The notes: a model not told the origin generated them from the sequence alone. A stretch of DNA of 62,955 bases, filler included, from an uncultured virus (IMG/VR IMGVR_UViG_3300005239_003333) (3 parts of one record of this genome joined end to end with filler, not necessarily neighbours in it), one strand, 5' to 3'; counted from the first letter of the whole stretch, positions 3-58,896 are shown. Made by a program: numbers and translations.

Positions 3-3000
3 CATTTTATTGCGGGGTTTGGTAATGGAATTAGTAGTAGTGGTAGCGGAATTATTGGTAGTTCTAACAGCATACCTGCTGGCTGTAATAATACCTTTAT
101 TATAGGCAGTGGTATTACAGCTACTGTATCCAGTGCTTTAATAGCACAAAATATATATTCACCTGGCTATATTAATAGTAACCAATTACTTTCAGCCGGT
201 CAAGATTTATCCAATGTATTCGCAACACCAGGTACTGCAGCTGGTACATTGCAACAGGTTACGGCTAATGGCACTACGACCACTAATGCTATTTCGGTCA
301 ATAGTCTTTCAGCCTTCGGTAAAATTATAGGTAGCTCTTTTACAAATACAGCATCCGGTAACGACTCGACAGCAGTAGGTGGTATATGCGCACATGTACA
401 TGGTAGTTGTGCAGGTATAGTCGCTGGTGCATGTAATGTTGTTAACGGTAATTGGTCAATTATAGGTGCCGGTCAAGTCAATCGTGTCACCAGTAATCAT
501 GCTGCAGTTGTTGGTGGTTGTAATAATCTAGCTAGTGGTGCTAAATCATTTATAGGTGGTGGTTGTGGTAATATAGCTAGCGGTATTTGTTCAATCATCG
601 TTGGCGGCGTCACCAATTCCGCCGCTGGTGCTTGTTCATTTATAGGCGGTGGTATTACTAGTAGCGCTAGTGGAAAAACTGCATTTGTTGGTGGTGGTTT
701 TGCTAATACCGCTTCAGGAGCATATTCAACCGTAGGTGGGGGTGACAGTAATATAGCCTGTGATAATAAATCAACTGTTGGCGGCGGGTGTATGAATACA
801 GCTTGCAAGACTTGGTCTACCGTAGCAGGCGGTATTACTAATACCGCTAGCGGCTCTGCATCATTCGTCGGTGGAGGTCGTAAAAATACAGCTAATGGAA
901 ACTGTTCAACTGTTGTAGCTGGCTTTAGTAGCAGCGCGCTCGGTGCGCATTCTTTTGTAGGTAGTGCTTATAAGAGTAAAGCAGTTGGTGGGTGTACATT
1001 TGTTGGAACTGGTCGTTATAATTGCGCGACCGCGAATGGTACATTTGTAGGTACTGGCTATCAAAACATAGCGACCGGTGGTTATTCTGCTGTTGTTGGT
1101 GGTTGTTTTAATAAGCCTATTGGGGCGGTTTCATTTATTGGTGGTGGTAAGAATAATCATGCTTGTGGTTGCATATCAACTGTCGCTGGTGGTTATTGTA
1201 ATACCGCTCGCGGATGTTATTCATTTATTGGTGGTGGTACATGTAATACAGCATTAAGCGCTAGATCAACTATTGCCGGCGGTTGTGGTAATACATCTAG
1301 CGGATGTTATTCAACTGTCGCTGGAGGAATGTGTAATCAAGCTAGCGGTTCATACGCCGCAGCTGGCGGAGGATTTAATAATACAGCAACCGGAAATGCA
1401 GCTGTAGTTAATGGTTATTGTAATATAGCTAGTGGAGTTAAATCAATTGTGGCAGGTGGTGCTTTTAATTGCGCAACCGGGCTAAATAGTACTGTTGGCG
1501 GCGGGTGTATGCATTGCTCGACAGGGACGTATTCAACTGTCGCTGGGGGAATGATGTCATGCTCGACCGGTAATTATTCAACTGTTGGCGGTGGTAATAT
1601 GAATAAGGCATTCGGTAGTAGTTCAACTATAGCCGGTGGTAGATATAATCAAGCTTACAGTGGAGATTCATTTGTTGGAGGCGGTTATTGTAATAAATCA
1701 TTAAGTGCGTTTAGCTTTACCGGGGGCGGTCAGTGTAATACAGCAAACGGTATTAAGTCAACTATTGCTGGCGGTGATACTAATACAGCATCTGGTTCAG
1801 CATCATTTATTGGAGGTGGTAATTCTAATGTATCATCTAGTTCTACATCAACTGTAGGTGGCGGTCAACTTAATTGCGCTATTGCTGTTCATTCAACAGT
1901 AGTTGGTGGCTTTTCTTCTCGTGCTAGCGGTAGTCGGTCATTCATTGGCGGGGGTACAGCTAACAAAGCTTTCTGCGGAGATGATTTTATTGGAGGAGGT
2001 ATTTCAAACTGTACCGCTGGTGGATACTCTAGTGTAGTTGGCGGTTATATGAATTTAGCTTCGTGCTTGGGCGCTGTTGTAGCGGGTGGTTCAGGTAATG
2101 TTGCCCAAGGTTCTACTTCATTTGTAGGTAGTGGTCATAATAATAGGGTTTTCGGAAATTCATCTGCGGTTGTTGGTGGTCAAGATAATTATGCAAAAGG
2201 TAATTGTTCGATCGTCGTAGGCGGGGGTGGTTACGGTAAAAGTAATGTAGCGTGTGGTATTTTTTCATTCATCGGTTCAGGTCATACTAATAGAGCTTCA
2301 ACCAGTACCAGCAACGCAGGTACGGTCGTAGTTGGTGGTGCTTGTAATCAGGCTCTGGGGGATTATAACTTTGTTGGAGGCGGCTTTAGAAACATAACTA
2401 GCAATTATTGTGCAACTATTGCTGGCGGTTTCGGGAATCAAGCTCAGGGTATAAATTCATTTATTGGAGGTGGTAGTAATAATAAGGCCGCGGGTTATTG
2501 TACAAGTATTGTAGGCGGTATTAGCGGTAATGCGGCTGGAAATGCCGCCTTCATAGGCGGTGGTTACCAAAATAATGCATCTAATGCATCAACTGCTATA
2601 GTTGGCGGGACTCGAAACGCAGCTAGTGGTAGCTCAGCTGTTATTGTAGGCGGTATTACTAATACAGCATCTGGTTCAGCATCATTTATTGGAGGTGGTA
2701 ATTCTAATACAGCATCCGGGCTTGCGGGAGTTGTAGGGGGCGGTCAGGGTAATACAGCAAACGGTATTAAGTCAACTATTGCTGGCGGTCAGGGTAATAC
2801 AGCAAACGGTGTTTGCAGCTTTGTAGGTGGTGGTTATCAAAATAGTGCCAGCGGTAACCGTTCGGCTGTAGCTGGTGGATATGGTAATACAGCCTCTGGT
2901 AGTTATTCTGTCGTTGGNNNNNNNNNNNNNNNNNNNNNNNNNNNNNNNNNNNNNNNNNNNNNNNNNNNNNNNNNNNNNNNNNNNNNNNNNNNNNNNNNNN

Positions 3001-4466
3001 NNNNNNNNNNNNNNNNNNNNNNNNNNNNNNNNNNNNNNNNNNNNNNNNNNNNNNNNNNNNNNNNNNNNNNNNNNNNNNNNNNNNNNNNNNNNNNNNNNNN
3101 NNNNNNNNNNNNNNNNNNNNNNNNNNNNNNNNNNNNNNNNNNNNNNNNNNNNNNNNNNNNNNNNNNNNNNNNNNNNNNNNNNNNNNNNNNNNNNNNNNNN
3201 NNNNNNNNNNNNNNNNNNNNNNNNNNNNNNNNNNNNNNNNNNNNNNNNNNNNNNNNNNNNNNNNNNNNNNNNNNNNNNNNNNNNNNNNNNNNNNNNNNNN
3301 NNNNNNNNNNNNNNNNNNNNNNNNNNNNNNNNNNNNNNNNNNNNNNNNNNNNNNNNNNNNNNNNNNNNNNNNNNNNNNNNNNNNNNNNNNNNNNNNNNNN
3401 NNNNNNNNNNNNNNNNNNNNNNNNNNNNNNNNNNNNNNNNNNNNNNNNNNNNNNNNNNNNNNNNNNNNNNNNNNNNNNNNNNNNNNNNNNNNNNNNNNNN
3501 NNNNNNNNNNNNNNNNNNNNNNNNNNNNNNNNNNNNNNNNNNNNNNNNNNNNNNNNNNNNNNNNNNNNNNNNNNNNNNNNNNNNNNNNNNNNNNNNNNNN
3601 NNNNNNNNNNNNNNNNNNNNNNNNNNNNNNNNNNNNNNNNNNNNNNNNNNNNNNNNNNNNNNNNNNNNNNNNNNNNNNNNNNNNNNNNNNNNNNNNNNNN
3701 NNNNNNNNNNNCATTTGTAGGTAACGGTTTGAATAATAAAGCTACCGGATGCGGGTCATTTGTAGGTAGCGGTAGCTACAATAAAGCTACTGGTAATCGT
3801 TCATCTGTAGTCGGTGGCGCTACAAATACAGCTAGCGGGATATGTTCAACTATAGTTGGTGGGTTTAGTAGTAGAGCTACTGGTAGTCATTCATTCATCG
3901 GCGGTGGATCTACTAATGTAGTAACCGGTCTATCAGCTAGTGTAGTTGGGGGTGATGGTAATTGTAACCGTAGTAATAATTCATTCATTGGTGGTGGTGA
4001 AACAAATCTTATATGTGTCGGAAACGATCATTCATCCATTGTAGGTGGTATATGTAATACTGTATATGCAGATTGTTCAATTGTTGGAGGTGGTATGTTT
4101 AATAGAACTGTTGAAACTGGGACTTTTTCGTTTGTAGGTGCTGGTTGTAGAAACGATGCGAAAGGAACTAAATCGTTCGTCGGTGCTGGTAGTTGTAACT
4201 TAGCATATGGAGCTGGGTCGGTTGTTACTGGTGGTTTTAAGAACTGCGCATGCGCATCCTTTTCATCGATTTTAGGTGGTCAATGTAATTGCGTCGGTGA
4301 TACCCATCATAATTCGATCATTGCTGGTACTAATATTAACTCAGTCTCATCTAATATGCTTCATGCAGATGCATTATTCTTAAAAACTGCATCATTACCT
4401 ACCTCTGATCCAAGCATAGCTGGTGTTGTTTGGAGAGATGGTACCGATCTTAAGATCAGTGTTTAA
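3..4466 (+). CDS. Giant Gly/Ser/Asn/Cys-rich 15-aa-repeat (beta-solenoid) tail fibre/adhesin; 5'-truncated, internal N gap 2918-3711
   Basis: Frame is open from position 3 (HFIAGFGNG...GTLQQVTANGTTTTNAISV), so the 249 start is not real. Dozens of tandem GGxxNxAxGxxSx[IV]x repeats; TLQxVTxxG motif; C-terminal LPTSDP..G.VW.DG..LKIS, typical of phage fibre ends. Confidence 0.75.
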   Translation, partial: HFIAGFGNGISSSGSGIIGSSNSIPAGCNNTFIIGSGITATVSSALIAQNIYSPGYINSNQLLSAGQDLSNVFATPGTAAGTLQQVTANGTTTTNAISVNSLSAFGKIIGSSFTNTASGNDSTAVGGICAHVHGSCAGIVAGACNVVNGNWSIIGAGQVNRVTSNHAAVVGGCNNLASGAKSFIGGGCGNIASGICSIIVGGVTNSAAGACSFIGGGITSSASGKTAFVGGGFANTASGAYSTVGGGDSNIACDNKSTVGGGCMNTACKTWSTVAGGITNTASGSASFVGGGRKNTANGNCSTVVAGFSSSALGAHSFVGSAYKSKAVGGCTFVGTGRYNCATANGTFVGTGYQNIATGGYSAVVGGCFNKPIGAVSFIGGGKNNHACGCISTVAGGYCNTARGCYSFIGGGTCNTALSARSTIAGGCGNTSSGCYSTVAGGMCNQASGSYAAAGGGFNNTATGNAAVVNGYCNIASGVKSIVAGGAFNCATGLNSTVGGGCMHCSTGTYSTVAGGMMSCSTGNYSTVGGGNMNKAFGSSSTIAGGRYNQAYSGDSFVGGGYCNKSLSAFSFTGGGQCNTANGIKSTIAGGDTNTASGSASFIGGGNSNVSSSSTSTVGGGQLNCAIAVHSTVVGGFSSRASGSRSFIGGGTANKAFCGDDFIGGGISNCTAGGYSSVVGGYMNLASCLGAVVAGGSGNVAQGSTSFVGSGHNNRVFGNSSAVVGGQDNYAKGNCSIVVGGGGYGKSNVACGIFSFIGSGHTNRASTSTSNAGTVVVGGACNQALGDYNFVGGGFRNITSNYCATIAGGFGNQAQGINSFIGGGSNNKAAGYCTSIVGGISGNAAGNAAFIGGGYQNNASNASTAIVGGTRNAASGSSAVIVGGITNTASGSASFIGGGNSNTASGLAGVVGGGQGNTANGIKSTIAGGQGNTANGVCSFVGGGYQNSASGNRSAVAGGYGNTASGSYSVVXXXXXXXXXXXXXXXXXXXXXXXXXXXXXXXXXXXXXXXXXXXXXXXXXXXXXXXXXXXXXXXXXXXXXXXXXXXXXXXXXXXXXXXXXXXXXXXXXXXXXXXXXXXXXXXXXXXXXXXXXXXXXXXXXXXXXXXXXXXXXXXXXXXXXXXXXXXXXXXXXXXXXXXXXXXXXXXXXXXXXXXXXXXXXXXXXXXXXXXXXXXXXXXXXXXXXXXXXXXXXXXXXXXXXXXXXXXXXXXXXXXXXXXXXXXXXXXXXXXXXXXXXXFVGNGLNNKATGCGSFVGSGSYNKATGNRSSVVGGATNTASGICSTIVGGFSSRATGSHSFIGGGSTNVVTGLSASVVGGDGNCNRSNNSFIGGGETNLICVGNDHSSIVGGICNTVYADCSIVGGGMFNRTVETGTFSFVGAGCRNDAKGTKSFVGAGSCNLAYGAGSVVTGGFKNCACASFSSILGGQCNCVGDTHHNSIIAGTNINSVSSNMLHADALFLKTASLPTSDPSIAGVVWRDGTDLKISV
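1722..1829 (+). repeat. Intragenic DNA repeat blocks A (1722-1775) and B (1778-1829)
   Basis: Block A matches 2736-2789 at 53/54 nt; block B matches 2657-2708 at 52/52 nt. Confidence 0.85.
2657..2810 (+). repeat. Second copies of blocks B (2657-2708) and A (2736-2789), plus a tandem 27-nt copy (2784-2810 = 2739-2765)
   Basis: Direct sequence comparison. Confidence 0.85.
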
Positions 4467-5287
4467 TTGATATAACCGAAATATTTTTGATACCATTCGT
4501 ATTCAGTATCAATAAAGTTACACGCAGCATCGCCTAAGATTTCATTGTAATCTTCTACACTAGGCTCTACTTTATTTTTAATTGAATGTAGATCATTATC
4601 TAGAGCATGTATAACATCATTTTCTTTTGTTACCTGCTCTACATTATTGAAGTTATGTTGGAAGTTATCAACACCGAGAATATTATATATTTCATTCATT
4701 ATTTCTTGAGGTCTTGAAGTTAAATCTTCGGCTCGTATAAACATTATACCACTGTCAACACCCATTTCAAACAGCTCTTGGATTCGATCTAAAGATATAC
4801 TCACAGGTATATTTTTCGTATACATATCTACTCTTTTAAAGACGGTCGTGCCTCTTACCTCCCCTTCAATTAACCACTGCGAAGTTTTATCTGGATTCTT
4901 TCTATGAAGTTTTTCGAACGATGCAGCAATAGCTTTTAAATTTCGTACCATACATAAGACTTTAGGCTTTTCACCTAAGAAATTTTCTATCCAAGCTATA
5001 TTGCCCTTCCAACCTCTACCTTTTAAAATTATATTAGGTCTATCTGTTAACGTGTTACAATAAGCTTCTAACCCGCCCTTGCAGAAGTTACGCCAAGCTT
5101 GCAAGGATAAATCTTGATCTACTGCAGCTTTAAATTCTGCACTATCTGTAAATCGTTGTCTAGCACCGTCAAGCAATTCTATAACACCATCGGTAGGGGT
5201 AGCGTAAAAATTAGGATTTTGAGCAAATATATTTTGAAGTAGAGTACTACATGCTCTAGGCATCGATGAATTAAAAACTATATTCAT
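4463..5287 (-). CDS. PAPS-dependent sulfotransferase family protein
   Basis: N-terminal 5'-PSB loop SSMPRACSTLL (cf. GLPRSGSTLL); 3'-PB motif RNLKAIAAS; FIRAEDLTSRP..IMNEIYNILG. Confidence 0.8.
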   Translation of the reverse strand: MNIVFNSSMPRACSTLLQNIFAQNPNFYATPTDGVIELLDGARQRFTDSAEFKAAVDQDLSLQAWRNFCKGGLEAYCNTLTDRPNIILKGRGWKGNIAWIENFLGEKPKVLCMVRNLKAIAASFEKLHRKNPDKTSQWLIEGEVRGTTVFKRVDMYTKNIPVSISLDRIQELFEMGVDSGIMFIRAEDLTSRPQEIMNEIYNILGVDNFQHNFNNVEQVTKENDVIHALDNDLHSIKNKVEPSVEDYNEILGDAACNFIDTEYEWYQKYFGYIN

Positions 5288-6183
5288 TTTACTGTACTAT
5301 CATAAACTTGTTGCAAGTTAAAAATATCATCTGTATCGAAAGGATATTCATATTCCGGGCCATTGAAGTCATAATCAAATATTAAACTATCTATATAGCT
5401 TGTATTATTTTCAATCATCTCCTTAGCTGGTTTAATATTCGTATGCATATCATACCCGAATACTTCAGGGTGTGTACCTATCCATAGAACAGTTGATGGT
5501 AAATTTAGAGCAGCTGCAGCATGCTGTAGGCAACTATCAATTAATATACGTTTCTGAGATGCAGCTAGCATTAGCATTAATGTTCTCTTATCAACCTCAT
5601 TAACAGTCTCAGTATTTTCTAATCGCTTACAATCTGGTCTAGTCACATGCATAACAGCGAAGTTTTTAGATAATTCATTAGCTAATACCTGGGCCTGTGT
5701 ATGGGGTATATCTCTTGTCCAGCAATAATCTTTTTTATTATCTTTATACATACCCCCATTAGTTTGCAGCATTAGTATTGGTTTCTCTCTAGCCAGGTCT
5801 TGTCTAACTTTTCTTGTCTCAATCGAGGTAAAGAATAGTTCAGGTACATTATTACCATCATACTCTAGATCGTGTAAGTTACACCACGACTTAACTAATT
5901 GTTGCTTGTTGTATAAATGACCCGTATTAAAATAAGGTTCGCCTTTTAATACAATAGACTCACGGTCTTTAATATAATCCTTATAAAAATAAGGTGTGTT
6001 ACCTGAACGGAAAACCCTATCGACGTTAGGATTGTTTAAGTAAACTTCCGGCCATGGTGTTACCACAATAATTTTATGGTCAGGGTATGTTGCTTTAATA
6101 TTCCTTACAACTGCTGTAGAAGCAATTATCTTACCTAAACCACCCTCGGGGTTAAAAATTACGTAATTATCTTTCTCTGACAT
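5284..6183 (-). CDS. GT9-like (heptosyltransferase-like, GT-B fold) glycosyltransferase
   Basis: N-terminal EGGLGKIIASTAVVRNIK..YPD; C-terminal IDSCLQHAAAALNLPSTVLW (GT9 DS..H.AAA..P motif); 4-nt stop/start overlap with the sulfotransferase. Confidence 0.75.
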   Translation of the reverse strand: MSEKDNYVIFNPEGGLGKIIASTAVVRNIKATYPDHKIIVVTPWPEVYLNNPNVDRVFRSGNTPYFYKDYIKDRESIVLKGEPYFNTGHLYNKQQLVKSWCNLHDLEYDGNNVPELFFTSIETRKVRQDLAREKPILMLQTNGGMYKDNKKDYCWTRDIPHTQAQVLANELSKNFAVMHVTRPDCKRLENTETVNEVDKRTLMLMLAASQKRILIDSCLQHAAAALNLPSTVLWIGTHPEVFGYDMHTNIKPAKEMIENNTSYIDSLIFDYDFNGPEYEYPFDTDDIFNLQQVYDSTVK

Positions 6184-6192
6184 ATACTATTA

Positions 6193-6219
6193 ATTATCTT
6201 GTTTTTTGTAAATTATCAA
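6193..6219 (-). promoter_or_regulatory. Putative sigma70-type promoter for the GT-sulfotransferase operon
   Basis: TTGATA-N15-GATAAT-N9-ATG on the minus strand. Confidence 0.45.
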
Positions 6220-6284
6220 CGGTTATAAAAGGTATAATAAAGTCCAATTGAATATTGGTTACCCTTTGATATACGTATGCATAC

Positions 6285-6482
6285 CTATCGCGATCCCTTC
6301 ATATAAGCTACTAAGCAATCATAAGGATGAAAGCCTACTTTTTGTAGTTGTATATACTTGTCACAAAAATCATCTTGGAGATGTTGTCTCTCAATCTGAC
6401 CTAATGCAGATTCAATCTGCCCTTGATATTTTTTATCAGCTTCAACTCTTAATTGCTCTCTAATAGCGTTATATTTACTCAT
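6285..6482 (-). CDS. Small hypothetical protein
   Basis: 65-aa ORF directly downstream of a near-consensus sigma70-type promoter. Confidence 0.55.
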   Translation of the reverse strand: MSKYNAIREQLRVEADKKYQGQIESALGQIERQHLQDDFCDKYIQLQKVGFHPYDCLVAYMKGSR

Positions 6483-6492
6483 TACTACTCTT

Positions 6493-6520
6493 ATTATAAT
6501 ACTTTGCCTTTAATTATCAA
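6493..6520 (-). promoter_or_regulatory. Sigma70-type early/middle promoter
   Basis: TTGATA-N16-TATAAT. Confidence 0.6.
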
Positions 6521-6530
6521 GGTTTAAAAT

Positions 6531-6536
6531 TAAATA
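6531..6536 (+). promoter_or_regulatory. T4-like late promoter core TAAATA
   Basis: TAAATA-N5-ATG(6542). Confidence 0.65.
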
Positions 6537-6541
6537 TTAAT

Positions 6542-7309
6542 ATGATTTCCGTTGATAAATCTTATAGTAGTAATGTACTTTATACACAGCCTCTCGATCC
6601 AAAGAACGATATCACCTTTTCGTTTTTATATACAGATTTTGATACAGAAGATTTAGGGCTACTCCAAACAGAAGATCAAAACCACTTTTTGTTACAAGAC
6701 GGGTCCGACTTTAGATTGAATATAGGCAGAGGTATAGTTGATGGACTGGCTGTATTTTTAATTAACGATATCCCCGGGGCAACATTAGTAGGTGGTGGCA
6801 GTGCTACAAACAACCCGGGGTTGAATTTAGTTACTGATACAAACACTACCGACTTAAGTGCCTTGTCTGGTATTATGCTTATAGCTGCTATCGACAAAAC
6901 AGGTTATTTTGGATTAAGCTCTAACGGGAGTAATGGTTCTTTAAAGCAATATACATCGGGTAATACAACCTTAAAGCCTGATAATTTAGTAATACGAGCT
7001 GCTAATAGAGGTTCAACAATATCAGCGCTACCGAGCGCGTTTGACTTTAAAGGTTCAACTCCTCTGAGCTCTGTTAACACTCAAACAGTTGATAGCAGAT
7101 TTAAAGTATTTTCTATTGGGTTTAAGAGGCACTTACAAGATGTAACTATATATAATCGCTCTGATTCACTAATTGAGCCCCATAGCACTATAAACACAGA
7201 TATATCTTTAAGTAACCTACCTTCGAGCGTACGCTTAGGTATAAGTTATTCTGGTCATATGCCAATGGAAATAAAAAATATAACTGTCAATGGTAATAAT
7301 ATAGGATAA
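6542..7309 (+). CDS. Putative virion structural protein (possible lectin-like beta-sandwich)
   Basis: Late promoter; LLQTEDQNHFLLQDG motif; DGLAVFL segment; Ser/Thr/Asn-rich. Confidence 0.55.
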   Translation: MISVDKSYSSNVLYTQPLDPKNDITFSFLYTDFDTEDLGLLQTEDQNHFLLQDGSDFRLNIGRGIVDGLAVFLINDIPGATLVGGGSATNNPGLNLVTDTNTTDLSALSGIMLIAAIDKTGYFGLSSNGSNGSLKQYTSGNTTLKPDNLVIRAANRGSTISALPSAFDFKGSTPLSSVNTQTVDSRFKVFSIGFKRHLQDVTIYNRSDSLIEPHSTINTDISLSNLPSSVRLGISYSGHMPMEIKNITVNGNNIG

Positions 7310-7312
7310 ATA
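7307..7312 (+). promoter_or_regulatory. Late promoter core TAAATA
   Basis: TAAATA-N5-ATG(7318). Confidence 0.65.
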
Positions 7313-7317
7313 ATTAT

Positions 7318-7917
7318 ATGCCAGATGCTAAATTAACAGATCTACCGATTATAACCGCTCCATCATCGAGTGATAAGTTTTACGTAGTTAATAATAACTT
7401 ATCAAAGAGCGTGACTCTAAGCGCGATAGCTAAAAATTTACCAAGTATTTTAACTACGGGTAATGCTAATGTTAGCGGCGATGTCGTATTAGCAGCAAGT
7501 AGTCAAATACTTTTTAATAATAAAGATTATTCTAGTTATGTTAATACTCAAATTAGTACTAATTTTATACCCAATACTGGCACTGGGGTCATGACCCTCA
7601 CCGGCACAACCGATTTCAGCGTTCAATCTAGCGAAGGTCAAACAACATTCGCTCTATCAGCTGGTGGTACTAACTCTAAGATATTTGTCAAAGTACCAAA
7701 CCAATCAAACTATCCAGGTTTCGTAGTCTCATTTATACAACTAGGTACAGCTTGCGTACAGCTTTCTGCTGGCGGTGGCGTAACTATCGGCAGCCTTAAT
7801 AGCTCTTTATCATCTGCTGGTCAATTTGCTAAGATCGACCTTACATATGTCGGTAACTATCCATTATCAGCTGATCAGCTTTATACACTAACAGGTGATT
7901 TATCAGCTACTTCGTAG
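7318..7917 (+). CDS. Short tail-fibre-like structural protein
   Basis: N-terminal KLTDLP; C-terminal IQLGTACVQLSAGGGVTI...AGQFA...TGDL resembles common phage fibre tip domains. Confidence 0.6.
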   Translation: MPDAKLTDLPIITAPSSSDKFYVVNNNLSKSVTLSAIAKNLPSILTTGNANVSGDVVLAASSQILFNNKDYSSYVNTQISTNFIPNTGTGVMTLTGTTDFSVQSSEGQTTFALSAGGTNSKIFVKVPNQSNYPGFVVSFIQLGTACVQLSAGGGVTIGSLNSSLSSAGQFAKIDLTYVGNYPLSADQLYTLTGDLSATS

Positions 7918-7940
7918 ACTGCATTTATATTCTTCTCTAT

Positions 7941-7946
7941 TAAATA
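7941..7946 (+). promoter_or_regulatory. Late promoter core TAAATA
   Basis: TAAATA-N6-ATG(7953). Confidence 0.6.
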
Positions 7947-7952
7947 TAATTA

Positions 7953-10900
7953 ATGGCGACAGTTTTACAGAAAAATTATAGCGATATAAGGCCGGTTAAG
8001 TTTAATCTACGAGATAAAGATAGAAGCTTGGATTTAAATATCCCTGCAAAATATGTATCTCAACAAGGCGGTAGTTTTTTAGAATATAAATTTCTTGTAA
8101 AATTAAATGATCTTAAGAATAAGAACTATACTTCAAATTATTTAACAGATACAAAGACTGAGACTGAAATATTTGATTTAAACTTTGATGAAAATATTAA
8201 TAATAGTTTTATTACTACTCTCAAATTTAATAATGATGCTAGTAAGTACCTAACTATAACAAAGAACGGAACATCGCTATCATCTAGTACATCTCTTTCT
8301 GCTCTCTCGTCGGGCGACGATAATTTATTTACTACGCAGAGCTTTGTTTTTGATCTTAGTAGTAATGCTAATAGCGAAACAATATGCCAGGTATGGACTT
8401 ATGACGGTCTATATAAGAAGTACCTTGTACAGCGGGGTATGAATCAAACTATTGAACCGGAAATTATATTTGATACGATAAACCCTTCAATTGAAAGCTT
8501 AGAGAGAGCTACATTTAATATATCCCTCGATAGTAATAACGCGCTACTATCTTTCTATGGAGATACAAATGTGAGTACTAATACAGCTGTTGAAAATTCT
8601 CAGTATATTTTAACTACAACAGCAACAGTCGTGACAGCAGTATCTGGATTTAATGCAGCAACTCTCTCTACAGCTAATATTACTATCGATAGATCTAATG
8701 CGGTTGATACAGATTATAGTAAGTTTAGTAATAATTTTGTTTATTACACGTCCGGGGTAGATATAGATCTGACCGAAACTATACCATCTCAGGAGTATAA
8801 TTTCTTATTATATAATAACTACGAGGAAAATTATCTTTCAAGCGGTAATATTTACGGCGAGTTAAGTTATTTTAATCTTAAGAATCAGATATCTAATAAA
8901 AACAATGTTAATAAAAAATTACCTTTTACTTTACCTCAGCAGCAACGCTATTATAACAGTATCCTTAATAATGAAACGGAAGAGACATCAGAGGAAAACC
9001 TAAAACTTGGTTATAATTTTTACACTACCGAATACAGCTTTGTACCTGATAGGTATACAAAGTTTAAACTGCCTTCTAATATTACTCCTTTTAAGAGTAT
9101 TAATATAAATGATGCAAATTTTCAAGGATCCGGTGCATATGCAGCTGGTTCACCATACTACAGTGATAGAGTTTATAAACTACAAGATGAATCGAACTTA
9201 AATACCAGGAACGAAGAAACAGGTACATTTTTATGCAGCTGGTTATATGATGACGGTACTGGTGGTATATGGCTTGATAGATATTACTTACCTAATTTTT
9301 CAACCCCACCCCTATCATCTGTTCTATTAGGAACGAGAAACCCATATACCACCCAGATTAATCGCATATCTGCCTCTTACGGGCTCGGTGATAATAATAT
9401 GTATTATTATGATATAAAGAGTACCTTATCTCTAGAACCTAATAATACATACTTCTATGCCCGTATCGGTAAATCATATGTAACAAAGACATTAAACGGT
9501 ATATCAGATAAGGTCATTAAAACTAGCTTTGATATTAATAGCATATTGACCGAAAGTATATTATCAAATCAGAATAAGATTGCTTTTGATGGTACAGCTT
9601 ATGATGAATTTGCTTTCCCATCGCTACTAGACGCTGATCAAGGTGCAATGGCGCTATCCTTTCATTTAAACGCTCCTAGTCTTCCTGATGCTAAAGCTCA
9701 TCAACTAATAGGTAACCTGTATAACACAGGAATATCTATTATGAAGAATTTCTACTTTACACCTTTCGTAATATTACAAAATGGCAATTCTTTAAATTAT
9801 TATGATAATAATTTTAAGTTGGTTAGAACTAATACTTTCAATTCTGTATCCGCTATAAGTGATGTATGTTATATGACACAGGGTGGTGATGCTGTTATAA
9901 TCGGTCAGAGCTCTACAGGCAGTAAAATCTTGAGAGTTAATTATAATGGTGATATAATAAGAGAATCAACACATTCACTAGCCGTCCAGCTAGCTACTAG
10001 TGGTTACACATCGCGGGTATTTTATGGTGTAGGTTCGACAGTGATGTTTTTCCAGCCCAGGACACCCGGGTCGCCTGCAGTAAACTATAATCTCGACTTA
10101 CAGACCCTTTCTATAGACATCGTCGATCCAGCTGTCTATAACGGCGCAGAGTCCGGTATATTATCCGCTGTAGATACAGCTATCGGCGGAGTTTCTGGCT
10201 TAAAGGGAGTTAATATTGATGGTAGATTTGCCGCATCTTTGAGCGCAGCTACTGGTATCGGTGCATCGGCTGGTACTGCAGTCTTGTTTACAGATTATAA
10301 AACTGGTGAGCAATTCCCAGCGATTAATTCTAGAGATGAGCGTATATGGGATATAAATGCCTTTGACGATAAACTATATGTTCAGTCCGATAAACTTTAC
10401 GTCTTTAATACAGATAGGGAATTACTCTCGACAATTAACCTTTCAACTTCAGCAGTCTCTGGTTATAAGATTGACTTTATAACAGAAGACTACGTTGTAA
10501 ATCCTATCGTCTTTTCACGAGATGCTAATTCAAACTTAATAGTAGATAAAATTATAACTACTGAAAATAATACAGTTTCATCATATGCTCTCGGTATACC
10601 ATCTGTTGACTTAGGATACCCTACAGCGCCTATAGCGGGCAACTTTGTTAGTCCAACGAATTTACATAGCCTGGAAGATACGTTTAAGACATATGAAGGT
10701 AAGTTCTGCTTTGTAAGTAGATTTGATAATGAAATAGCTTTACAGGACGAAAAAAATCCATGGGATACGTTTAATGAACAATTCTCTTCGTTTAACGCAG
10801 GGTGGTGGAATGTTAACTATACCGGAGCTGGCGGTACTCTGGTTGATAATAGTAGTGTGCATATTATCGAAGGTATTAAGAATGGTCATAACTGCATACA

Positions 10901-11597
10901 GGCAGATCTAGATCTTGTTACCGGTAAGGTTAGAATATTTGTTAATGGTTCTGAAACAACTACATTCGTTATAAATGCAGGTATTAAACCTTTAAAAAAT
11001 TATCTATATAATGACTTTTATATTGGTGCACCGAACTTTAGTACGGGCTCCATTGTTGATTACAAATCAGATAGCGTTAGTTTAGCTAAAAATATTATAC
11101 TTGGAGATATAAATGTATTTGATACAACGCTAGATACAGATATTTTAAAATACCTCTATCTTAACTGTATCGAGCAAATTGACCCTGTTAATTTTGATGT
11201 AACTACATCTGCTCGTAATAATATCGAGACGATTAATAATTTCTATAGTTATAAAGTTCCGGGTAATCTGAGCAATAAGATAAAATTATTAATTAAAAAT
11301 GGTAATTTAAATCTTCAAGAGCAAGCAATTATAACAGAAGCGTTACAAAAGAGGTTGTCTAAATTTTTACCAGCAACAATTAACATAAATGATATTGAAT
11401 TCGATTATAGAATTGGTAACGACCAGCCAGCAGAAGACGAAGTACCATTACAATTACAACCTTCGCTTCCAATAGGCGGTAACCCACCGAGTAATGTATT
11501 TGATCCTGGTTCGTTCATATCTATAGAGGTAACGACTTCGCTAACACCTGTATTATTTGATAGTGACGGCGTTCAAGCCTTTGTCATGGTAATCTAA
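7953..11597 (+). CDS. Large virion structural protein (baseplate/tail-associated), 1214 aa
   Basis: Long intact ORF, late promoter, N/S/T/Y-rich, lies among fibre genes. Confidence 0.6.
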   Translation: MATVLQKNYSDIRPVKFNLRDKDRSLDLNIPAKYVSQQGGSFLEYKFLVKLNDLKNKNYTSNYLTDTKTETEIFDLNFDENINNSFITTLKFNNDASKYLTITKNGTSLSSSTSLSALSSGDDNLFTTQSFVFDLSSNANSETICQVWTYDGLYKKYLVQRGMNQTIEPEIIFDTINPSIESLERATFNISLDSNNALLSFYGDTNVSTNTAVENSQYILTTTATVVTAVSGFNAATLSTANITIDRSNAVDTDYSKFSNNFVYYTSGVDIDLTETIPSQEYNFLLYNNYEENYLSSGNIYGELSYFNLKNQISNKNNVNKKLPFTLPQQQRYYNSILNNETEETSEENLKLGYNFYTTEYSFVPDRYTKFKLPSNITPFKSININDANFQGSGAYAAGSPYYSDRVYKLQDESNLNTRNEETGTFLCSWLYDDGTGGIWLDRYYLPNFSTPPLSSVLLGTRNPYTTQINRISASYGLGDNNMYYYDIKSTLSLEPNNTYFYARIGKSYVTKTLNGISDKVIKTSFDINSILTESILSNQNKIAFDGTAYDEFAFPSLLDADQGAMALSFHLNAPSLPDAKAHQLIGNLYNTGISIMKNFYFTPFVILQNGNSLNYYDNNFKLVRTNTFNSVSAISDVCYMTQGGDAVIIGQSSTGSKILRVNYNGDIIRESTHSLAVQLATSGYTSRVFYGVGSTVMFFQPRTPGSPAVNYNLDLQTLSIDIVDPAVYNGAESGILSAVDTAIGGVSGLKGVNIDGRFAASLSAATGIGASAGTAVLFTDYKTGEQFPAINSRDERIWDINAFDDKLYVQSDKLYVFNTDRELLSTINLSTSAVSGYKIDFITEDYVVNPIVFSRDANSNLIVDKIITTENNTVSSYALGIPSVDLGYPTAPIAGNFVSPTNLHSLEDTFKTYEGKFCFVSRFDNEIALQDEKNPWDTFNEQFSSFNAGWWNVNYTGAGGTLVDNSSVHIIEGIKNGHNCIQADLDLVTGKVRIFVNGSETTTFVINAGIKPLKNYLYNDFYIGAPNFSTGSIVDYKSDSVSLAKNIILGDINVFDTTLDTDILKYLYLNCIEQIDPVNFDVTTSARNNIETINNFYSYKVPGNLSNKIKLLIKNGNLNLQEQAIITEALQKRLSKFLPATININDIEFDYRIGNDQPAEDEVPLQLQPSLPIGGNPPSNVFDPGSFISIEVTTSLTPVLFDSDGVQAFVMVI

Positions 11598-11603
11598 TTT
11601 AGT

Positions 11604-14600
11604 TTAGAATATTAAGTACAACGTCTGGTCTTGAACTGCGTCAATCCCGCCATCGCCACCTATGCTACTTCTCCAACCGTATAGAGCTCTATCAGGATGG
11701 GATAAATCAGCTAAAGCATCATATGCAGCCTGGGATAAAAGCTGTGGCGGATTTTGTCTATCTTGAGCAATAATCTTCGCACAACCGCCGCCATTTTTAA
11801 CAGCACCAAAAACATTATCCGCGTCAACTGAACCTTCAATTAAATCAACTCCGTTGAGTTTTTCGAGTAGAGGAGATGACCAAGAAATATTATCATCGAT
11901 CAGCACCGCAGCGGTCGTTTGTACCGATACTACAGCTTCACTAGACCATAAATTTGTAGCGAGATTAGCCGTTCTATCTATACCTGTAGAAGTCCAGGTA
12001 CTAGAATTCCTTCGCGATGCCCCGGCCTGGGTAAGCGCCCACTCATAGCCAATTCCATTACGTGGCTCCGGGTTACCATCCGCATCCACTGGAGCGGTTG
12101 CATCCGCATCTGATCCTGCATTTGTAACCGTACTAGACCAACCATCCGGTACTAATAGTCTATTATTCGCAAAATCATATGCCCCGTAACCGGTTTGATT
12201 AGTATTACTAGCAGGTGTGCCCGGTGGAGTTGCAGATCTTTTATATATCTTTAAATTAATCGTTTGAAATCCAGCCTCCCCAGCTACTCCAGATATATGA
12301 ATAGGAGCGCCCCACTCAACACTTGAATCACTTGCAGTTTTTGCAACTTTTTGAGACATCCAATTATATGTCTGATTTTCAGGTGGATTAGCATTAGTAT
12401 ACCAAGTAGTACCTACATTACCGGTACTACCGTTTGTTGGCTTTGTAGGTTTATTTTCTGGCTCCGGACCGTTGGGGCTATAGCAAATAAATACACTATT
12501 ACCGTCCGGTCCGGCAGCACCAGCTGGACCATCACTACCATCAGTAGTTAGAATTTCCCAAGCATTTGAACCAGTACTCTCATCAGTTTGCCAAACATGT
12601 AATCTACCAAGCCCGTCAGTACCGGTTATTCTATATACATGGCCTACTGCCAATCCAGCTATTGCCGATGCAGCAGCAAGAGATTCAGCGGTACCTTTAT
12701 ATACAAATGATGTACCGGTTTGACCTGCAACACCATCAATAGTTAGCTGCTTAAAGTTTGTATCACTGTTTTTATCAGTTGTGTTTTGACCACCTATATA
12801 TAGATATGAAACATTTCTACCATCTGTACCGGTCTCTATATGGTAGGAATTAAGTGGTGGTATACCATTATAACCATTCGTTGCATCGTCAATATAAGCT
12901 ATATAAGCAGCTCTATTAACAAATGATTGAATGAAAACTAGACCTGTACCGTCTGTAACAAATTTCTCCGGGCTTGACCACTGATCCCAACTAATTTCAT
13001 CAGTAGTACCAGCGCCAGATGCAATTGCACGTGATATCCATAAAGTACTACCACCGGTTTCTGGTAAGGTCGACGACCATTGTTGATCACTAGCTGGCCC
13101 TAATTGAACGCCGTTGACATTTAAATTACCGGTTGAGAAATTATAAGTGAAAGTAGGGGTACCGCTACCACTATATGAGAATCCTAAATTATTATTACTG
13201 ACCTCGCCAGATGGTCGACTACCGGTAGTTCTTTTATATAATCGAACAGTTGCTGAGTTAAGACCTGTACCGTCCTTTGATAGTAACACTGGTTCGGCCC
13301 ATTGATTTGAAGCTACTGAAGCTTTATCAATATCGTTAGTACCAACGACAGGGGCTATTATTACCCATAAGAACTGTCCGTTGCTTTCAGAAGGTATATC
13401 TTCACTCCAAACTACACCAGCAGTTGTAGTGAGCGCGCTTGTAGAGTCGGTATTTACCTTACCTATATCGCCCGCTGCTGTCTTAGTGTTGATATTCATA
13501 ACAGCTGGCTTGTAGCTATTAGCGTCAGTACTACTAGACCAGTTAGTTTTAAGAAGCGGGTCACTTTTTTCTGTTCTTGTATATAAGAACTTCTGGAAGA
13601 ATGTACTGCCTTCAGTACCATCAAAGCCATCTTGAGCTAATATTGTAGGAGCAGCCCATTCAGTGCTTAGAATTTCATCTTCATAATCCCCAGTGCTTTG
13701 ATTTAGGGCAGCAGTCGCTGTAGCCGTTGTACGCCATAGATATTTGTTAGTACCGTCTGAATTAGTTACACCTTTAGACCAACCAGCAAGGCTACCACCA
13801 AGGGTTTCAGTTCTAAAATTATATGATATTGTAGTAGAGGGTAAAGCTGGAGCTGTTGAACCGCCTCTCTGGTGCAAGAAGATCGATTGTTTTATGATCG
13901 TAGGGTTATAACCAAATACTACGTCAGCTATGGAAGCATTAGATGTAGTATGGAACCCCGGTAAATCACCAATCTGAGAAATATCTTCTGAGTGATCTAA
14001 TACAGTTACCCTAACATCTGTGTAAGTACCTGAAACACTGACCGGGCCAGTCCGTTGGAATACTATCCAGCTTGAACCATATTTCCATAAGAATTCACTT
14101 GCTGAATTTAAGTCTGACCAAAATTCACTAAAATCCACATTGCTCTTACCATTTACTGAAAAGAGTATCTGTTTAATAGTAGCTATAGATTGAGTTGAAT
14201 CTCCAACACCATCACCGTAACCTTGATTAACGTTAGCAGTTGCGGCACTTTCTCCTCTAAACGAGTAATAGCTAGATTGCGGCGCGCCTGCATCAGTTAT
14301 AGATTCAAAATTACTATCAAAGTATTCATATGATGCTACCCGGGATACTGTTGGGGCTGTTCTACCAGCACCTACCGACCAAGCTCTAACCGAAGACCAT
14401 TCGCTAGGTGTTATAATCAGCGGCCCGGTAGTGGTATCAGCGTCGTGTGTTTTAATAACTGTAGCTCTGTAAATTTTATAGCCCGATTCTGCATTGTCTG
14501 GTGCAACGCTCCAGTTACTCGGAAGATCGGTAACTAAACCATTTGCAATATTAAAAGTAGCGTTCGATTGAGGGACGGTAGGTACATCTGCTGTTATCGA

Positions 14601-17600
14601 TACCTTACTAAATATTTCAATTAAATTAGGTGTAATACCAGCTGTACCGGCCGCACCCTTACTCCCACCTATAGTAGGGTTTAAAGCTTTAACGTGTAAG
14701 TTTCTATCGGTCGTCTCTCTAAATTCCCAATCACCAGCTGCTAATGACGTACTGTTATCACCATCCGTTCCAGTATAACCGTAGAAATCGTAAAATACTT
14801 TAGGGTCTCCAAAGACATCAATACCAGTTCTTTTAGCTCTAATATAATCACCAGCCCAAAATCCATTTGCTCCTAGACCTATACGCTCATTAAACGCGTT
14901 ACTCAACGAAGGGAAACCATCACTTATTAGAACACTCGGTGTAATGGTTGCGTTAATATTATTGACATAGCCGCGATTGAAAGCCACTTGGTCAGTGGTG
15001 CCACCATCGTCATCTTCATCCTGCGTGTCAATCTTACCTAATACATTTATATTATCCCAATTTAACATACCGAAGCTAACATATTTAGCATTAGGCCCGG
15101 GTATATATTCGAAAGGAAAACTTACAAATTCAGTAGCTGTAAGGGTACCTCCACCGGAACCATCTCCAGTTGAATAGTTGAATATCGCCTCTGGTCTATA
15201 GNNNNNNNNNNNNNNNNNNNNNNNNNNNNNNNNNNNNNNNNNNNNNNNNNNNNNNNNNNNNNNNNNNNNNNNNNNNNNNNNNNNNNNNNNNNNNNNNNNN
15301 NNNNNNNNNNNNNNNNNNNNNNNNNNNNNNNNNNNNNNNNNNNNNNNNNNNNNNNNNNNNNNNNNNNNNNNNNNNNNNNNNNNNNNNNNNNNNNNNNNNN
15401 NNNNNNNNNNNNNNNNNNNNNNNNNNNNNNNNNNNNNNNNNNNNNNNNNNNNNNNNNNNNNNNNNNNNNNNNNNNNNNNNNNNNNNNNNNNNNNNNNNNN
15501 NNNNNNNNNNNNNNNNNNNNNNNNNNNNNNNNNNNNNNNNNNNNNNNNNNNNNNNNNNNNNNNNNNNNNNNNNNNNNNNNNNNNNNNNNNNNNNNNNNNN
15601 NNNNNNNNNNNNNNNNNNNNNNNNNNNNNNNNNNNNNNNNNNNNNNNNNNNNNNNNNNNNNNNNNNNNNNNNNNNNNNNNNNNNNNNNNNNNNNNNNNNN
15701 NNNNNNNNNNNNNNNNNNNNNNNNNNNNNNNNNNNNNNNNNNNNNNNNNNNNNNNNNNNNNCTAAATCTTATATTACCGGTAATTGTTTTTTCGGCAGTT
15801 CTAAAACCATCTACATTAATAGCAGGATATACCATCCCTAACCCAATATCAGTACCACCACTATGCTCGGATAGTATAAGTTCAGAAGTACGCTCATCAT
15901 ATACAATAGTGTTAGGGTCATCATTACTATAACCTGCAACAGCATCGAAACCAGCTGGTAACCCAGCAGCGCCTTGAATCAACGACCATGTATACTTTTC
16001 AGGTTCATTACTTTCACTAGATGAAGCGTTATTAAGCGATATACCAATATACTTTTTACCAGTCGGGTCATCGGTCATGTCTGCACCCGTATCACTTGCT
16101 GTTAATGCTCTATCGGCATACTTAATATGTGTATAGAGAGATTCACCGGTAATCTTCTTCCAAGAAGTTGCAGTACCTAGACCTTGCAAAGTTTCCTGTG
16201 TGGTATCAGAAGCAACATCACCACCGGTATAGAAGAATACATAAGGTAGACTATCGCTCTGTGTTAAAGATGCATCAGTACCGTCTGCAGCAGATGCAAA
16301 GATTGGAACTGAACCTACAGGTCCTCTAATACCTTGCTGACCATCTTCGCCAACGATCTTTGACCATGTATATGCACTGGTTTGGGTACTTTCAGTCGAA
16401 GATGCGTTATTAACTGAAATACCAATATATGGTCTTGTTCCAGGATCGCCCGTAGTAAAATTAGAGGTACCTGCTAAATTATCAGCATATGCAATATGGG
16501 TATATAGAGGGTCCCCTTTAACCTTAGTAAAGGTATAGTCTCCTATATTTGTAGGATCAGTATTGGTAGAATTATCAGTTGAATTAGTTGTTGCTACTCC
16601 TAAGAACTCTCCGAGATCTTCACCTTGTTGAGTAGTAAATGTATCAGGTATACCATTACCGGTAGTATCATTAGCATACTTAAAGTGTATTTGAGCTCCT
16701 GGTCCAGTTAGACCCGTATTACCTTGAGGTCCTTGAACCTGCCCAACATTAGTAAATGCGGCTTGACCAGAACTACCATTTGAAACGTGAAGATTACCAC
16801 CAATAATATAGGCGTCACCTGAACTAGATGTAGTAGGTAAATCATCAGTACTTGTTAAAGTATCTACAATATTAATAGATGAACCGTCATTACCTTTAAT
16901 CTTTACAAAAATAACACCAGGATTGCTTTGATATGCAGCAAATCTAGTCGCAAAAGAACTTGGGTCACCTAAATCACCAACGGTATCTTCAATAAATGAA
17001 ACGTGAGTGCTACTGGAGTTAGGGCTTAAACTAGCGTTCGCACCGCTGGAGTCAGTAGCATATACAGGTACTATTTGATTAGCATTTTCACCTTTATATT
17101 TTACGAATCCTCCTGTCCCTTCAAGAGTAGATACAGCTGGTTTAGTACCTGAATATTCATGATATTTTACAAATAATTTGCTCGACGATGGAGTTTCAGA
17201 AACATTAGTACCAGTTGCATCATCGGCATAAGCAACTAATACACCATCACCTTGGACGCCCTGTATACCTGTTTGGCCTTGAATACCTTGATCACCCCTA
17301 ATTCTAATAAACGTTAATGTATTAGCGGCAACAGTCGTACCAGCCGCTCTTGTAAGATTTTCACTACTGTCTATACTAGTATATTCATCGCTAAAGTTAA
17401 TATGGGTATGATCTTTAAATTCACCTGATGATAAGAATATTGAATCTAAACTAGCACTAACACCTGCAAAATTCGAACTAAAAACAGGTGTTATGGTGGT
17501 ACCATCCTCCATAAGCACTTTTGGCTCTTTCCACTTACTAGCTGCAATAGTATATGCATCTGTCGTAGTCGAGCATAAAGCTGTAGCGAATGTTTGCCAT

Positions 17601-33587: not shown

Positions 33588-33862
33588 TGAAAGATAACGA
33601 TACACAACTATTAGGCGAAGCTTACACACAAGTACAAGAAGGATTCGGCGACTTTGCTAAAAGCGCTGCTAAAATGACTGGTAAAACAGCTGGTAAAGTT
33701 GGATTAGCAGCAACTGGAGTAGCAGCAAAAACAGCCGGTATCGGACTTGACGGTATAATGAAAGCTTTAAACTACCTTACATCAGCCCAGCTTCAAAAGC
33801 TTGGACAAGCTGCTTTAGATAAAGCAGATCAAATAAAGATTAGCGACGAAGAGGATTGCTAA
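33587..33862 (+). CDS. Small putative head internal protein
   Basis: N-terminal D..LL.EAY..V.E motif; TAATG coupling. Confidence 0.55.
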   Translation: MKDNDTQLLGEAYTQVQEGFGDFAKSAAKMTGKTAGKVGLAATGVAAKTAGIGLDGIMKALNYLTSAQLQKLGQAALDKADQIKISDEEDC

Positions 33863-58796: not shown

Positions 58797-58896
58797 NNNN
58801 NNNNNNNNNNNNNNNNNNNNNNNNNNNNNNNNNNNNNNNNTTAATTAATTAANNNNNNNNNNNNNNNNNNNNNNNNNNNNNNNNNNNNNNNNNNNN
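58797..58896. other. Artificial scaffold linker N44-TTAATTAATTAA-N44
   Basis: Same construct as 28553-28652. Confidence 0.95.

Follow-up and report, generated by a model that had tools for sequence, protein, structure and literature searches.

Does a virus of natural waters put sugar and sulfate on its own tail fibre, and could cysteines be the residues that carry them? The question is raised by the left end of a window of 62,955 nt (filler included; three parts of one record joined end to end) from the uncultured virus IMGVR_UViG_3300005239_003333, where a long tail-fibre gene studded with cysteine codons meets a gene pair for a glycosyltransferase and a sulfotransferase. It comes from a T4-like myovirus of aquatic origin. 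We favor the hypothesis that the locus is a fibre-decoration cassette similar to the glycosyltransferase TibC and its adhesin TibA, and we give this interpretation a probability of roughly 0.5. In the infected cell, the glycosyltransferase would transfer a sugar to exposed side chains of the fibre repeats, as TibC and AAH heptosylate the beta-helical TibA and AIDA-I. The sulfotransferase would then sulfate that sugar, or less likely a fibre tyrosine, with host 3'-phosphoadenosine 5'-phosphosulfate (PAPS), and the receptor-binding fibre would thereby acquire a coat of anionic glycan.

The fold of the glycosyltransferase carries the first part of the argument. A Foldseek search with its AlphaFold2 (AF2) model (predicted local distance difference test, pLDDT, 88.6) returned GT9 enzymes at all of ranks 1-10, TibC among them. 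Structural alignment with VIA-align gave Z-scores of 17.3-21.7 for GT9 chains (root-mean-square deviation, rmsd, 3.3-4.1; 244-268 residues), whereas other GT-B folds did not exceed 11.2, with individual values of 21.7 for 3tov, 19.4 for WaaF, 19.1 for TibC and 18.9 for WaaC. The alignment with TibC (4rap/4rb4; rmsd 4.0-4.1, 263-264 residues) covers TibC residues 88-385 only. The predicted fold thus shows the product of the open reading frame (ORF) at 5284..6183 to be a GT9-family glycosyltransferase of the GT-B type, and upholds the label "GT9-like" of an earlier sequence-only reading of this DNA. A glycocin-type GT2 enzyme was ruled out, the fold being GT-B/GT9 and not GT-A.

The C-terminal nucleotide-sugar motif of the GT9 enzymes, D-[ST]-G-x-x-H-x-x-A-A-L, is kept in the window enzyme, and in hhalign alignments (E 0.002-0.004) the segment IDSCLQHAAAAL (residues 215-226) pairs with VDTGLSHLTAAL of WaaC and NDSGLMHVAAAL of WaaF. 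In this segment S217, C218, Q220, H221 and A223-225 do not vary among the 37 sequences compared, and neither does Lys18 near the N-terminus. By eye, EGGLGK (13-18) stands opposite TSSMGD (8-13) of WaaC, which sets Lys18 opposite Asp13, presumably the catalytic aspartate of the GT9 N-terminus; the computed alignment of the N-terminal part is shifted and unreliable. The Pfam GT9 profile (PF01075, cut-off 22) scored 20.4 bits on the homologue gp49 of phage HTVC112P (23.3 with neighbouring in-frame matches) and 16.2 on PSSM2_307 of phage P-SSM2, and a profile of the window enzyme gave chance-level matches only among PDB sequences. None of the 2,700 homologues that we recovered carries a precomputed Pfam domain; in the collections searched the family is almost wholly viral, and it is abundant in aquatic phages. 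Gene context points to an ADP-heptose-like nucleotide sugar as the probable donor. Elsewhere in the window, 52 kb from the glycosyltransferase, lies a dTDP-glucose 4,6-dehydratase gene, cut off at the 5' end by masked stretches, that could provide a deoxy-sugar.

The second enzyme, at 4463..5287, is shown by Pfam matches above cut-off to be a predicted PAPS-type sulfotransferase (Sulfotransfer_1, PF00685, 28.9 bits against 22; Sulfotransfer_3, PF13469, 27.4 against 27), in agreement with the earlier assignment. It also matches phrog_27463 (E 4.5e-34), has homologues annotated as sulfotransferases in the Synechococcus phages S-SKS1, S-SCSM1 and S-SRM01, and falls in atlas clusters that are 94-100% viral. 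The NCBIfam match was weak (Nod-factor sulfotransferase NoeE, E 0.0036, far below cut-off), and the comparison with the PDB gave a single match at E 0.66. Sulfotransferases have a 5'-phosphosulfate-binding loop near the N-terminus with the pattern P-x-x-G-S/T-T. Residues 8-17 of the window protein, SMPRACSTLL, resemble this pattern and may form such a loop. As to the supply of PAPS, the readable part of the window has no adenosine 5'-phosphosulfate (APS) kinase. Among the related loci treated below (numbered with L), the record of L061 has an APS kinase (68 bits) directly after the glycosyltransferase and sulfotransferase (G002, 189538-192101), and that of L006 has one elsewhere (G004, 33663-33908). 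The L061 record also has a second PF01075-like ORF just upstream of the glycosyltransferase.

Gene order ties the enzymes to each other and to fibres. In the window, the fibre stop codon (4464-4466, plus strand) and the sulfotransferase stop codon (4463-4465, minus strand) make the two ORF ends overlap by 4 nt, exactly the tail-to-tail arrangement described earlier, and the two enzyme genes, a translationally coupled pair on the minus strand, likewise share 4 nt. In 78 IMG/VR loci with a homologous glycosyltransferase, fetched with 10 kb on either side, a sulfotransferase homologue was present in 60, mostly 0-7 nt from the glycosyltransferase, and a homologue of the window fibre lay within 10 kb in 38. 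The glycosyltransferase follows the fibre on the same strand after a gap of 35-83 nt in L034, L064, L068 and L081-L085, and in HTVC112P, a cultured pelagiphage, its start overlaps the stop of the fibre gene. In L081-L085 and L089 it lies 35-40 nt downstream of short fibres with 5.5-6.6% cysteine, and the fetched DNA has no sulfotransferase. A reverse search from the fibre C-terminus found a glycosyltransferase in 12 of 13 loci with a cysteine-bearing (at least 1.4%) repeat fibre; in the exception, L091, the sequence stops 515 nt past the fibre. L080, which encodes a 556-aa relative containing 2.7% cysteine, has no glycosyltransferase in 17.5 of its 20.5 kb.

In P-SSM2, a stretch with a tail-fibre gene on either side holds PSSM2_307, followed by a carbamoyltransferase and annotated ADP-heptose genes (an hldE-like heptose-7-phosphate kinase/adenylyltransferase, a carbohydrate kinase, a gmhA-like phosphoheptose isomerase and a nucleotide-sugar epimerase). 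Our search for gmhA with the Pfam family SIS_2 missed even the annotated P-SSM2 gene, and its negatives are uninformative. Two further searches against a phage collection returned no match: one with the DNA of the window from 4000 to 12000, and a tblastn search with the fibre, in which the low-complexity filter is the probable reason. We conclude that the glycosyltransferase probably moves as a module together with genes for receptor-binding fibres, whose products it would modify, and that the sulfotransferase is an optional part of this module.

What kind of protein would it modify? The fibre is unreadable at its 5' end and over 265 codons mid-gene, and we modelled a segment in between (residues 171-485) from a 20-row alignment of homologous segments. 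The AF2 monomer model (pLDDT 93.6) has two strands in each 15-residue repeat, at positions 4/5-8 and 11-14. Foldseek returned nothing for this model at E-values up to 0.001. A wide VIA-align comparison with 48,161 chains aligned it with the BpaC head 7o23 (Z 23.7, 276 residues, 28% identity), UspA1 3pr7 (Z 21.0), CbpF (Z 14.9-15.5), YadA 1p9h (Z 10.2) and the TibC-glycosylated TibA fragment 4q1q (Z 12.8). Modelled as a homotrimer, the segment scored 0.95 against 0.27 for the best control, and the runs agreed in at least 92% of contacts with a pLDDT of at least 94; 20 of 30 solved pairs and 1 of 23 single chains attain that mark, and the pass may reflect likeness, trimeric adhesin heads having already been solved.

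The fibre is accordingly computed to be a homotrimer of the YadA-head type, with each chain a left-handed beta-roll. It works like the head of a trimeric autotransporter adhesin (TAA), yet it is not a TAA because it has no membrane anchor and ends in a phage-fibre tag, LPTSDPSIAGVVWRDGTDLKISV. No Pfam family, and thus no C-terminal membrane anchor, was found in its last 250 residues, and the Pfam head and repeat models stay below threshold on the fibre (UspA1_rep, 20.2 against a cut-off of 27). The tag, with the pattern LPTSDPGIxGxxWxDxxxLKIS, also ends many unrelated, cysteine-free, fibre-like phage proteins with no glycosyltransferase nearby (L095-L111), and may be a shared docking or trimerisation element.

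The fibre has 52 cysteines in its 1,222 readable residues (4.26%), close to the about 50 in about 1,140 first counted by hand, and the 23 other ORFs of the window have 64 in 10,882 (0.59%). We parsed 45 canonical repeats of the form G1 G2 x x N5 x A7 x G9 x x S12 x [VI]14 x, which carry 33 of the 52, with 7, 6, 5, 4, 2, 3 and 6 at positions 3, 4, 6, 8, 9, 10 and 11, respectively. All 33 thus lie at variable positions, where the sequence-only reading had placed almost all of the cysteines, and fill 33 of the 315 places there (10.5%). Nineteen repeats have none, 19 have one and 7 have two, and positions 13 and 15, left free in the parse, have none. The region at 11604-20474 had been described as a single giant fibre with about 5 cysteines in about 2,500 residues; the count stands (5 in about 2,558, as 2+3+0), and the single fibre does not, since at least two ORFs with N runs inside them occupy the region. 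Neither 11604-15068 nor 7953-11597 matched a Pfam or PHROG family.

In the model, N5, A7, S12 and V/I14 are predicted to point toward the core of the roll and positions 6, 8, 11 and 13 outward, while 3, 4, 9 and 10 lie in turns, as deduced from strand alternation and the interface list and not from coordinates. Cysteines never occur at the inward positions 5, 7, 12 and 14, nor at 13, and a role in core packing was rejected. The predicted interface brings positions 11-13 and 15 of one chain against 15 and 1-3 of the next, which puts 9 of the 20 cysteines of the segment (at positions 3 and 11) in the seam between chains; the other 11 (at 4, 6, 8 and 10) are not in the interface list. None of the nine has a cysteine at its predicted partner position. 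The trimer prediction had been proposed as a check that the cysteines face solvent and are unpaired: they come out as unpaired and outside the core, but nearly half of those modelled sit in the seam and not in solvent.

The absence of fixed pairs, also claimed earlier, was borne out by within-protein shuffles of 578 repeats from 44 family proteins, in which no type of cysteine pair in the repeat lattice was enriched across the family. The predicted seam contact, from position 11 to position 3 of the next repeat, was observed 5 times against 5.1 expected. A fixed disulfide ladder was rejected on these statistics. In the window fibre alone, about 40 tests gave small excesses of position 4/position 10 pairs between adjacent repeats (3 where 0.2 were expected) and of ladders at position 6 (2 against 0.4). 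In homologues of about 40% identity, 3-10 of 33-39 aligned cysteines are kept in place with similar totals overall, which makes these sites less conserved than the average residue, and in the C-terminal 250 residues (74% identity) 8 of 12 are kept; register ambiguity in the repeat alignments weakens both figures. The cysteines behave as a maintained surface composition, unlike structural disulfides.

The wider family tells how far this composition is tied to the enzymes. Searches with the 15-mer repeat gave 1,642 matches, and bacterial "tail fiber domain-containing" proteins with PF13884 or PF21300 account for many of these. Among the best 120 matches, 119 have at least five repeats; their median cysteine content is 0.71%, 52 fall below 0.5% and 29 reach 2% or more. 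With 52 of 119 relatives this poor in cysteine, a requirement of the fold for cysteine was rejected. One cysteine-free branch is chromosomal in Kapabacteria and Chlorobiota. By comparison, the median is 2.17% for the 40 repeat fibres from loci with the glycosyltransferase, not one of which falls under 0.5% (Mann-Whitney p 2e-8, with rows that are not independent). Position by position, cysteine makes up 3.6-13.7% of each variable position in 659 repeats from glycosyltransferase-bearing phage loci (11.7% at position 3, 13.7% at 4 and 10.0% at 11) and at most 0.2% in 1,189 repeats of cysteine-poor relatives. These gains are offset chiefly by losses of Asp, Glu, Gln and Ser at the same positions, and T6 and S8 are the commonest residues at their positions in both sets.

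None of 13 bacterial loci with cysteine-poor relatives has the glycosyltransferase. Only bacterial loci were obtained for the cysteine-poor fibres, so the contrast is confounded by phage versus bacterium: alignment A3 offered no conserved stretch, and searches with P0169, P0161 and A4 gave no confirmed viral locus of cysteine-poor relatives. The link between the glycosyltransferase and cysteine-bearing fibres that had been proposed for the window thus recurs widely. Against the earlier idea that a glycan on cysteine is then sulfated, the most cysteine-rich fibres (L081-L085, L089) have the glycosyltransferase without a sulfotransferase in the fetched DNA, and sulfation is therefore not tied to cysteine. 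The fibres that accompany this glycosyltransferase do have surface cysteines that are dense and turn over quickly, and this property is real and under selection.

Likewise, the enrichment reaches beyond the 15-mer fibres. An adjacent ORF with at least 2% cysteine was found in 38 of 61 loci with distinct glycosyltransferases, and among non-fibre ORFs this level is reached by 28.6% of immediate neighbours against 9.3% of those farther away (mutually related rows; ORF floor 200 aa). The cysteine-rich neighbours span several apparently unrelated families. They include fibres with an 11-mer "NTTG" repeat and 1.5-2.8% cysteine, such as gp48 of HTVC112P, and the hypothetical paralogues PSSM2_304 and PSSM2_306 just upstream of PSSM2_307, which have 355-356 aa, 36 cysteines each (10.1%) and 15-16% glycine. 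In L007 and L010, two of the closest relatives of the window glycosyltransferase, the place of the window fibre is taken by a protein of 443-531 aa with 4.1-6.8% cysteine and no 15-mers (531 aa and 6.8% in L007), which stands tail to tail with the glycosyltransferase.

The closest parallels are the pairs TibC/TibA and AAH/AIDA-I (4rap, 4rb4, 4q1q), in which a GT9-type GT-B enzyme stands beside a long beta-solenoid adhesin that is presumed to be a cytoplasmic substrate. The structural match of the fibre model to TibA and the annotated ADP-heptose genes beside the P-SSM2 family member add to this likeness. TibC has an extra N-terminal part, an iron site and a dodecameric assembly, according to the titles of its PDB entries; the window enzyme is phage-encoded, has 299 aa and lacks a counterpart of that N-terminal part. 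Its candidate substrate is predicted to be a trimeric two-stranded beta-roll and not, like TibA, a monomeric three-stranded beta-helix, and transfer to protein is a prediction. The partnership with a sulfotransferase and the richness of the fibre in cysteine also set the window locus apart from TibC/TibA, autotransporter passengers being cysteine-poor. WaaC and WaaF (2h1h, 1psw) share the fold (Z 18.4-19.4) and a C-terminal D-[ST]-x-L-x-H-x-x-A-A-L, but the window enzyme has no Pfam GT9 match, and its partners are fibres and cysteine-rich proteins instead of genes for the lipopolysaccharide (LPS) core.

On the side of the fibre, YadA-type heads (7o23, 3pr7, 1p9h) are also left-handed parallel beta-rolls with one turn per repeat, a form in which the window fibre is a predicted homotrimer; identity to the BpaC and UspA1 heads is 28-32% over 252-276 residues (Z 21-24). 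The window fibre differs in its 15-residue repeat, the missing membrane anchor, the phage-fibre tag and cysteine at about 10% of variable positions. In mycobacteriophages, phage-encoded glycosyltransferases reportedly glycosylate the phage's own structural proteins, with O-glycans on the C-termini of capsid and tail-tube proteins, as Freeman and co-workers are said to have described in 2023; that system is said to use other glycosyltransferase families and to involve neither sulfation, a fibre target nor cysteine. A full-text literature search (subscription journals not covered) found no paper that describes the present pairing of glycosyltransferase, sulfotransferase and cysteine-rich fibre.

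Several observations weigh against a fibre-decoration cassette. Gene adjacency is the chief argument for the fibre as substrate, which is a predicted substrate only, and these loci are fibre-rich and fast-changing, so that host-range and surface-modifying genes could gather there for other reasons. The enzymes of the window are convergent with the fibre and not co-transcribed with it; a T4-type late promoter motif is absent near the glycosyltransferase, and the window as a whole shows no enrichment of it (12 occurrences where 17 were expected). The glycosyltransferase has no Pfam match even at E 10 and no NCBIfam match, and hhalign assigns its similarity to WaaC and WaaF a low probability (9-13%). 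Nor does adjacency have a significant effect on the cysteine content of fibre-like ORFs taken separately, 68% of which have at least 2% cysteine when adjacent against 35% farther away (p 0.068; with the ORF floor at 120 aa, where intervening small spurious ORFs hide L024, the fibre-only p was 0.009). Furthermore, 17 of the 78 loci have neither a sulfotransferase nor a fibre-family match within 10 kb in the fetched DNA, and these include most of the closest relatives of the window glycosyltransferase (L002-L005, L007-L010).

The convergent gene order and these 17 loci also fit a rival reading, in which the two enzymes remodel a glycan of the host envelope (LPS core, capsule or S-layer glycan) and leave the virion untouched, for instance to block superinfection or to keep progeny off debris, with the fibre nearby because both belong to a shared, fast-changing host-interaction region. 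The best-matching characterised GT9 enzymes, WaaC and WaaF, are LPS heptosyltransferases, and the weak match of the sulfotransferase to NoeE is to a carbohydrate enzyme. The P-SSM2 clusters, one of which holds PSSM2_307, were interpreted as LPS genes by Sullivan et al., 2005 (PMC1079782). We nevertheless consider a role confined to the host envelope unlikely. TibC scores as well as WaaC in the structural comparison (Z 19.1 against 18.9), the glycosyltransferase family is almost wholly viral, and its position right after a fibre gene, or overlapping the fibre stop in HTVC112P, fits late co-expression with structural genes. A host-glycan role also does not predict the enrichment of cysteine-rich proteins next to the glycosyltransferase.

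If the fibre is decorated, which residues would be the acceptors? Our conservative guess is an O-linkage to the abundant exposed serines and threonines, such as T6 and S8. For the surface cysteines, the candidate roles are as acceptors, in redox or disulfide chemistry after lysis, or in metal binding. An S-linkage to cysteine is possible, as a special case of decoration in which the GT9-like enzyme makes S-linked sugars that the sulfotransferase then sulfates, and the facts in its favor are the high share of cysteine at variable positions in glycosyltransferase loci, the lack of pairing, the drift of sites at steady density expected of a positionally loose acceptor, the accompanying losses of Asp, Glu, Gln and Ser, the absence of cysteine-poor repeat fibres from these loci and of the enzyme from the 13 bacterial ones, and the cysteine-rich neighbours that seem to have no relation to the fibre. 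On the other side, the enzyme pair of L024 stands between Gly/Ser/Thr-rich fibres with 0.3% and 0.0% cysteine and 37-38% serine plus threonine, the fibre-like neighbours of the cassette in L023 and L033 have 0.2-0.3%, and the cysteines of the seam would have no room for a sugar after assembly. The confounding with lineage and the lack of a sulfotransferase beside the richest fibres count against it as well. The S-glycosyltransferases SunS, GccA and ThuS are GT2 enzymes with a GT-A fold that act on small secreted peptides, whereas TibC and AAH make O-links, and we know of no GT9 enzyme that makes S-links. The window enzyme shares with the glycocin enzymes only the proposed sugar on a cysteine thiol, without a link in sequence or fold. 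We therefore regard cysteine as the acceptor as improbable, and hold equally low the broader proposal that aquatic phages, P-SSM2 and HTVC112P included, use a Lys-for-Asp variant of GT9 to glycosylate dozens of loosely placed fibre thiols, which many of them then sulfate.

It could also be that the cysteines have nothing to do with the enzymes and instead form disulfides within or between fibres after lysis, serve as redox latches or bind metal, a proposal about the cysteines only that is compatible with decoration of other residues. The precedent is the cyanophage Pam3, in whose fibres one defined cysteine per chain pairs with a defined cysteine of the baseplate wedge, in a bond released by dithiothreitol (PMC9942802). 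Like Pam3, the window virus would be a water phage with exposed cysteines on its tail fibre, but these number in the dozens and are unconserved, with no pairing pattern. The many seam cysteines of the model and the small window excesses at positions 4/10 and 6 fit such chemistry. So do two tail proteins of the window that lie 16-19 kb from the enzymes and are rich in cysteine all the same (Table 1). Family-wide, however, no pair type is enriched, the seam contact included, and no seam cysteine meets a predicted partner. At about 40% identity the sites are conserved less well than the average residue, contrary to what structural disulfides would lead one to expect, and the fold needs no cysteine. 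On balance we hold a role apart from the enzymes to be doubtful, if by no means far-fetched.

Should fibre decoration be confirmed, its consequences would reach beyond this virus. Tail fibres decide which cells a phage infects, and phage-made, sometimes sulfated fibre sugars on abundant phages of oceans and lakes would revise current views of receptor binding, particle stickiness, and the grazing and decay of marine viruses. Genes that have been classed for two decades as host "LPS" auxiliary genes would have to be reinterpreted, and the partnership of GT9 enzyme and beta-solenoid adhesin, familiar from enteric bacteria, would extend to viruses. If the link to cysteine were also chemical, this would be the first S-glycosylated virion, with a bulk coat chemistry so far known only on small bacteriocins, and part of the cyanophage "LPS genes" would be virion-decoration genes. 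The cultured carriers P-SSM2 and HTVC112P make the question directly testable.

Table 1. Coordinates of the features discussed (in the window unless another locus is named).
Feature	Coordinates	Strand	Remarks
Tail-fibre gene, 3' part	3..4466	+	1,487 codons or more; 5' end beyond the window start; N at 2918-3711
Modelled fibre segment	513..1457	+	315 residues, 21 repeats, 20 cysteines; monomer and trimer models
C-terminal fibre tag	4395-4463		
Predicted PAPS-type sulfotransferase	4463..5287	-	274 aa; by Pfam; convergent with the fibre; start overlaps glycosyltransferase stop by 4 nt
Predicted GT9-fold (heptosyltransferase-like) glycosyltransferase	5284..6183	-	299 aa; by fold; first gene of a two-gene minus-strand unit
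ORFs of the "giant fibre" region	11604-15068; 15122-19894/20474	-	N runs inside
Cysteine-rich tail protein	22396-23148	+	Peptidase_S74 chaperone domain; 3.2% cysteine
Cysteine-rich tail protein	24193-25203	-	Tail collar domain; 3.0% cysteine
SET-domain protein	35774-36079	-	101 aa; PF00856, E 1.2e-8
dTDP-glucose 4,6-dehydratase, 3' two thirds	57993-58682	-	TIGR01181, E 1.2e-84, profile positions 87-311 of 321; N run 58797-58896
QueE-like radical S-adenosylmethionine protein	61750-62490	+	
phrog_3704 ("ferredoxin") match	62513-62953	+	
PSSM2_304/PSSM2_306	4955-6025 and 6754-7821		L113 (P-SSM2)
Cysteine-rich protein of L007	10906-12501	-	
Cysteine-rich protein of L010	10897-12228	-	

The remainder of the window, which has 17 N-masked stretches in all, encodes a tail sheath about 33% identical to those of cyanophages, tube paralogues, a baseplate wedge protein, terminase, clamp loader, primase, PhoH and several fibre-like proteins. 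A short SET-domain protein is encoded among the replication genes. Near the right end, the gene for a QueE-like protein is followed by the phrog_3704 match, and the two may perhaps be genes of a 7-deazaguanine pathway.

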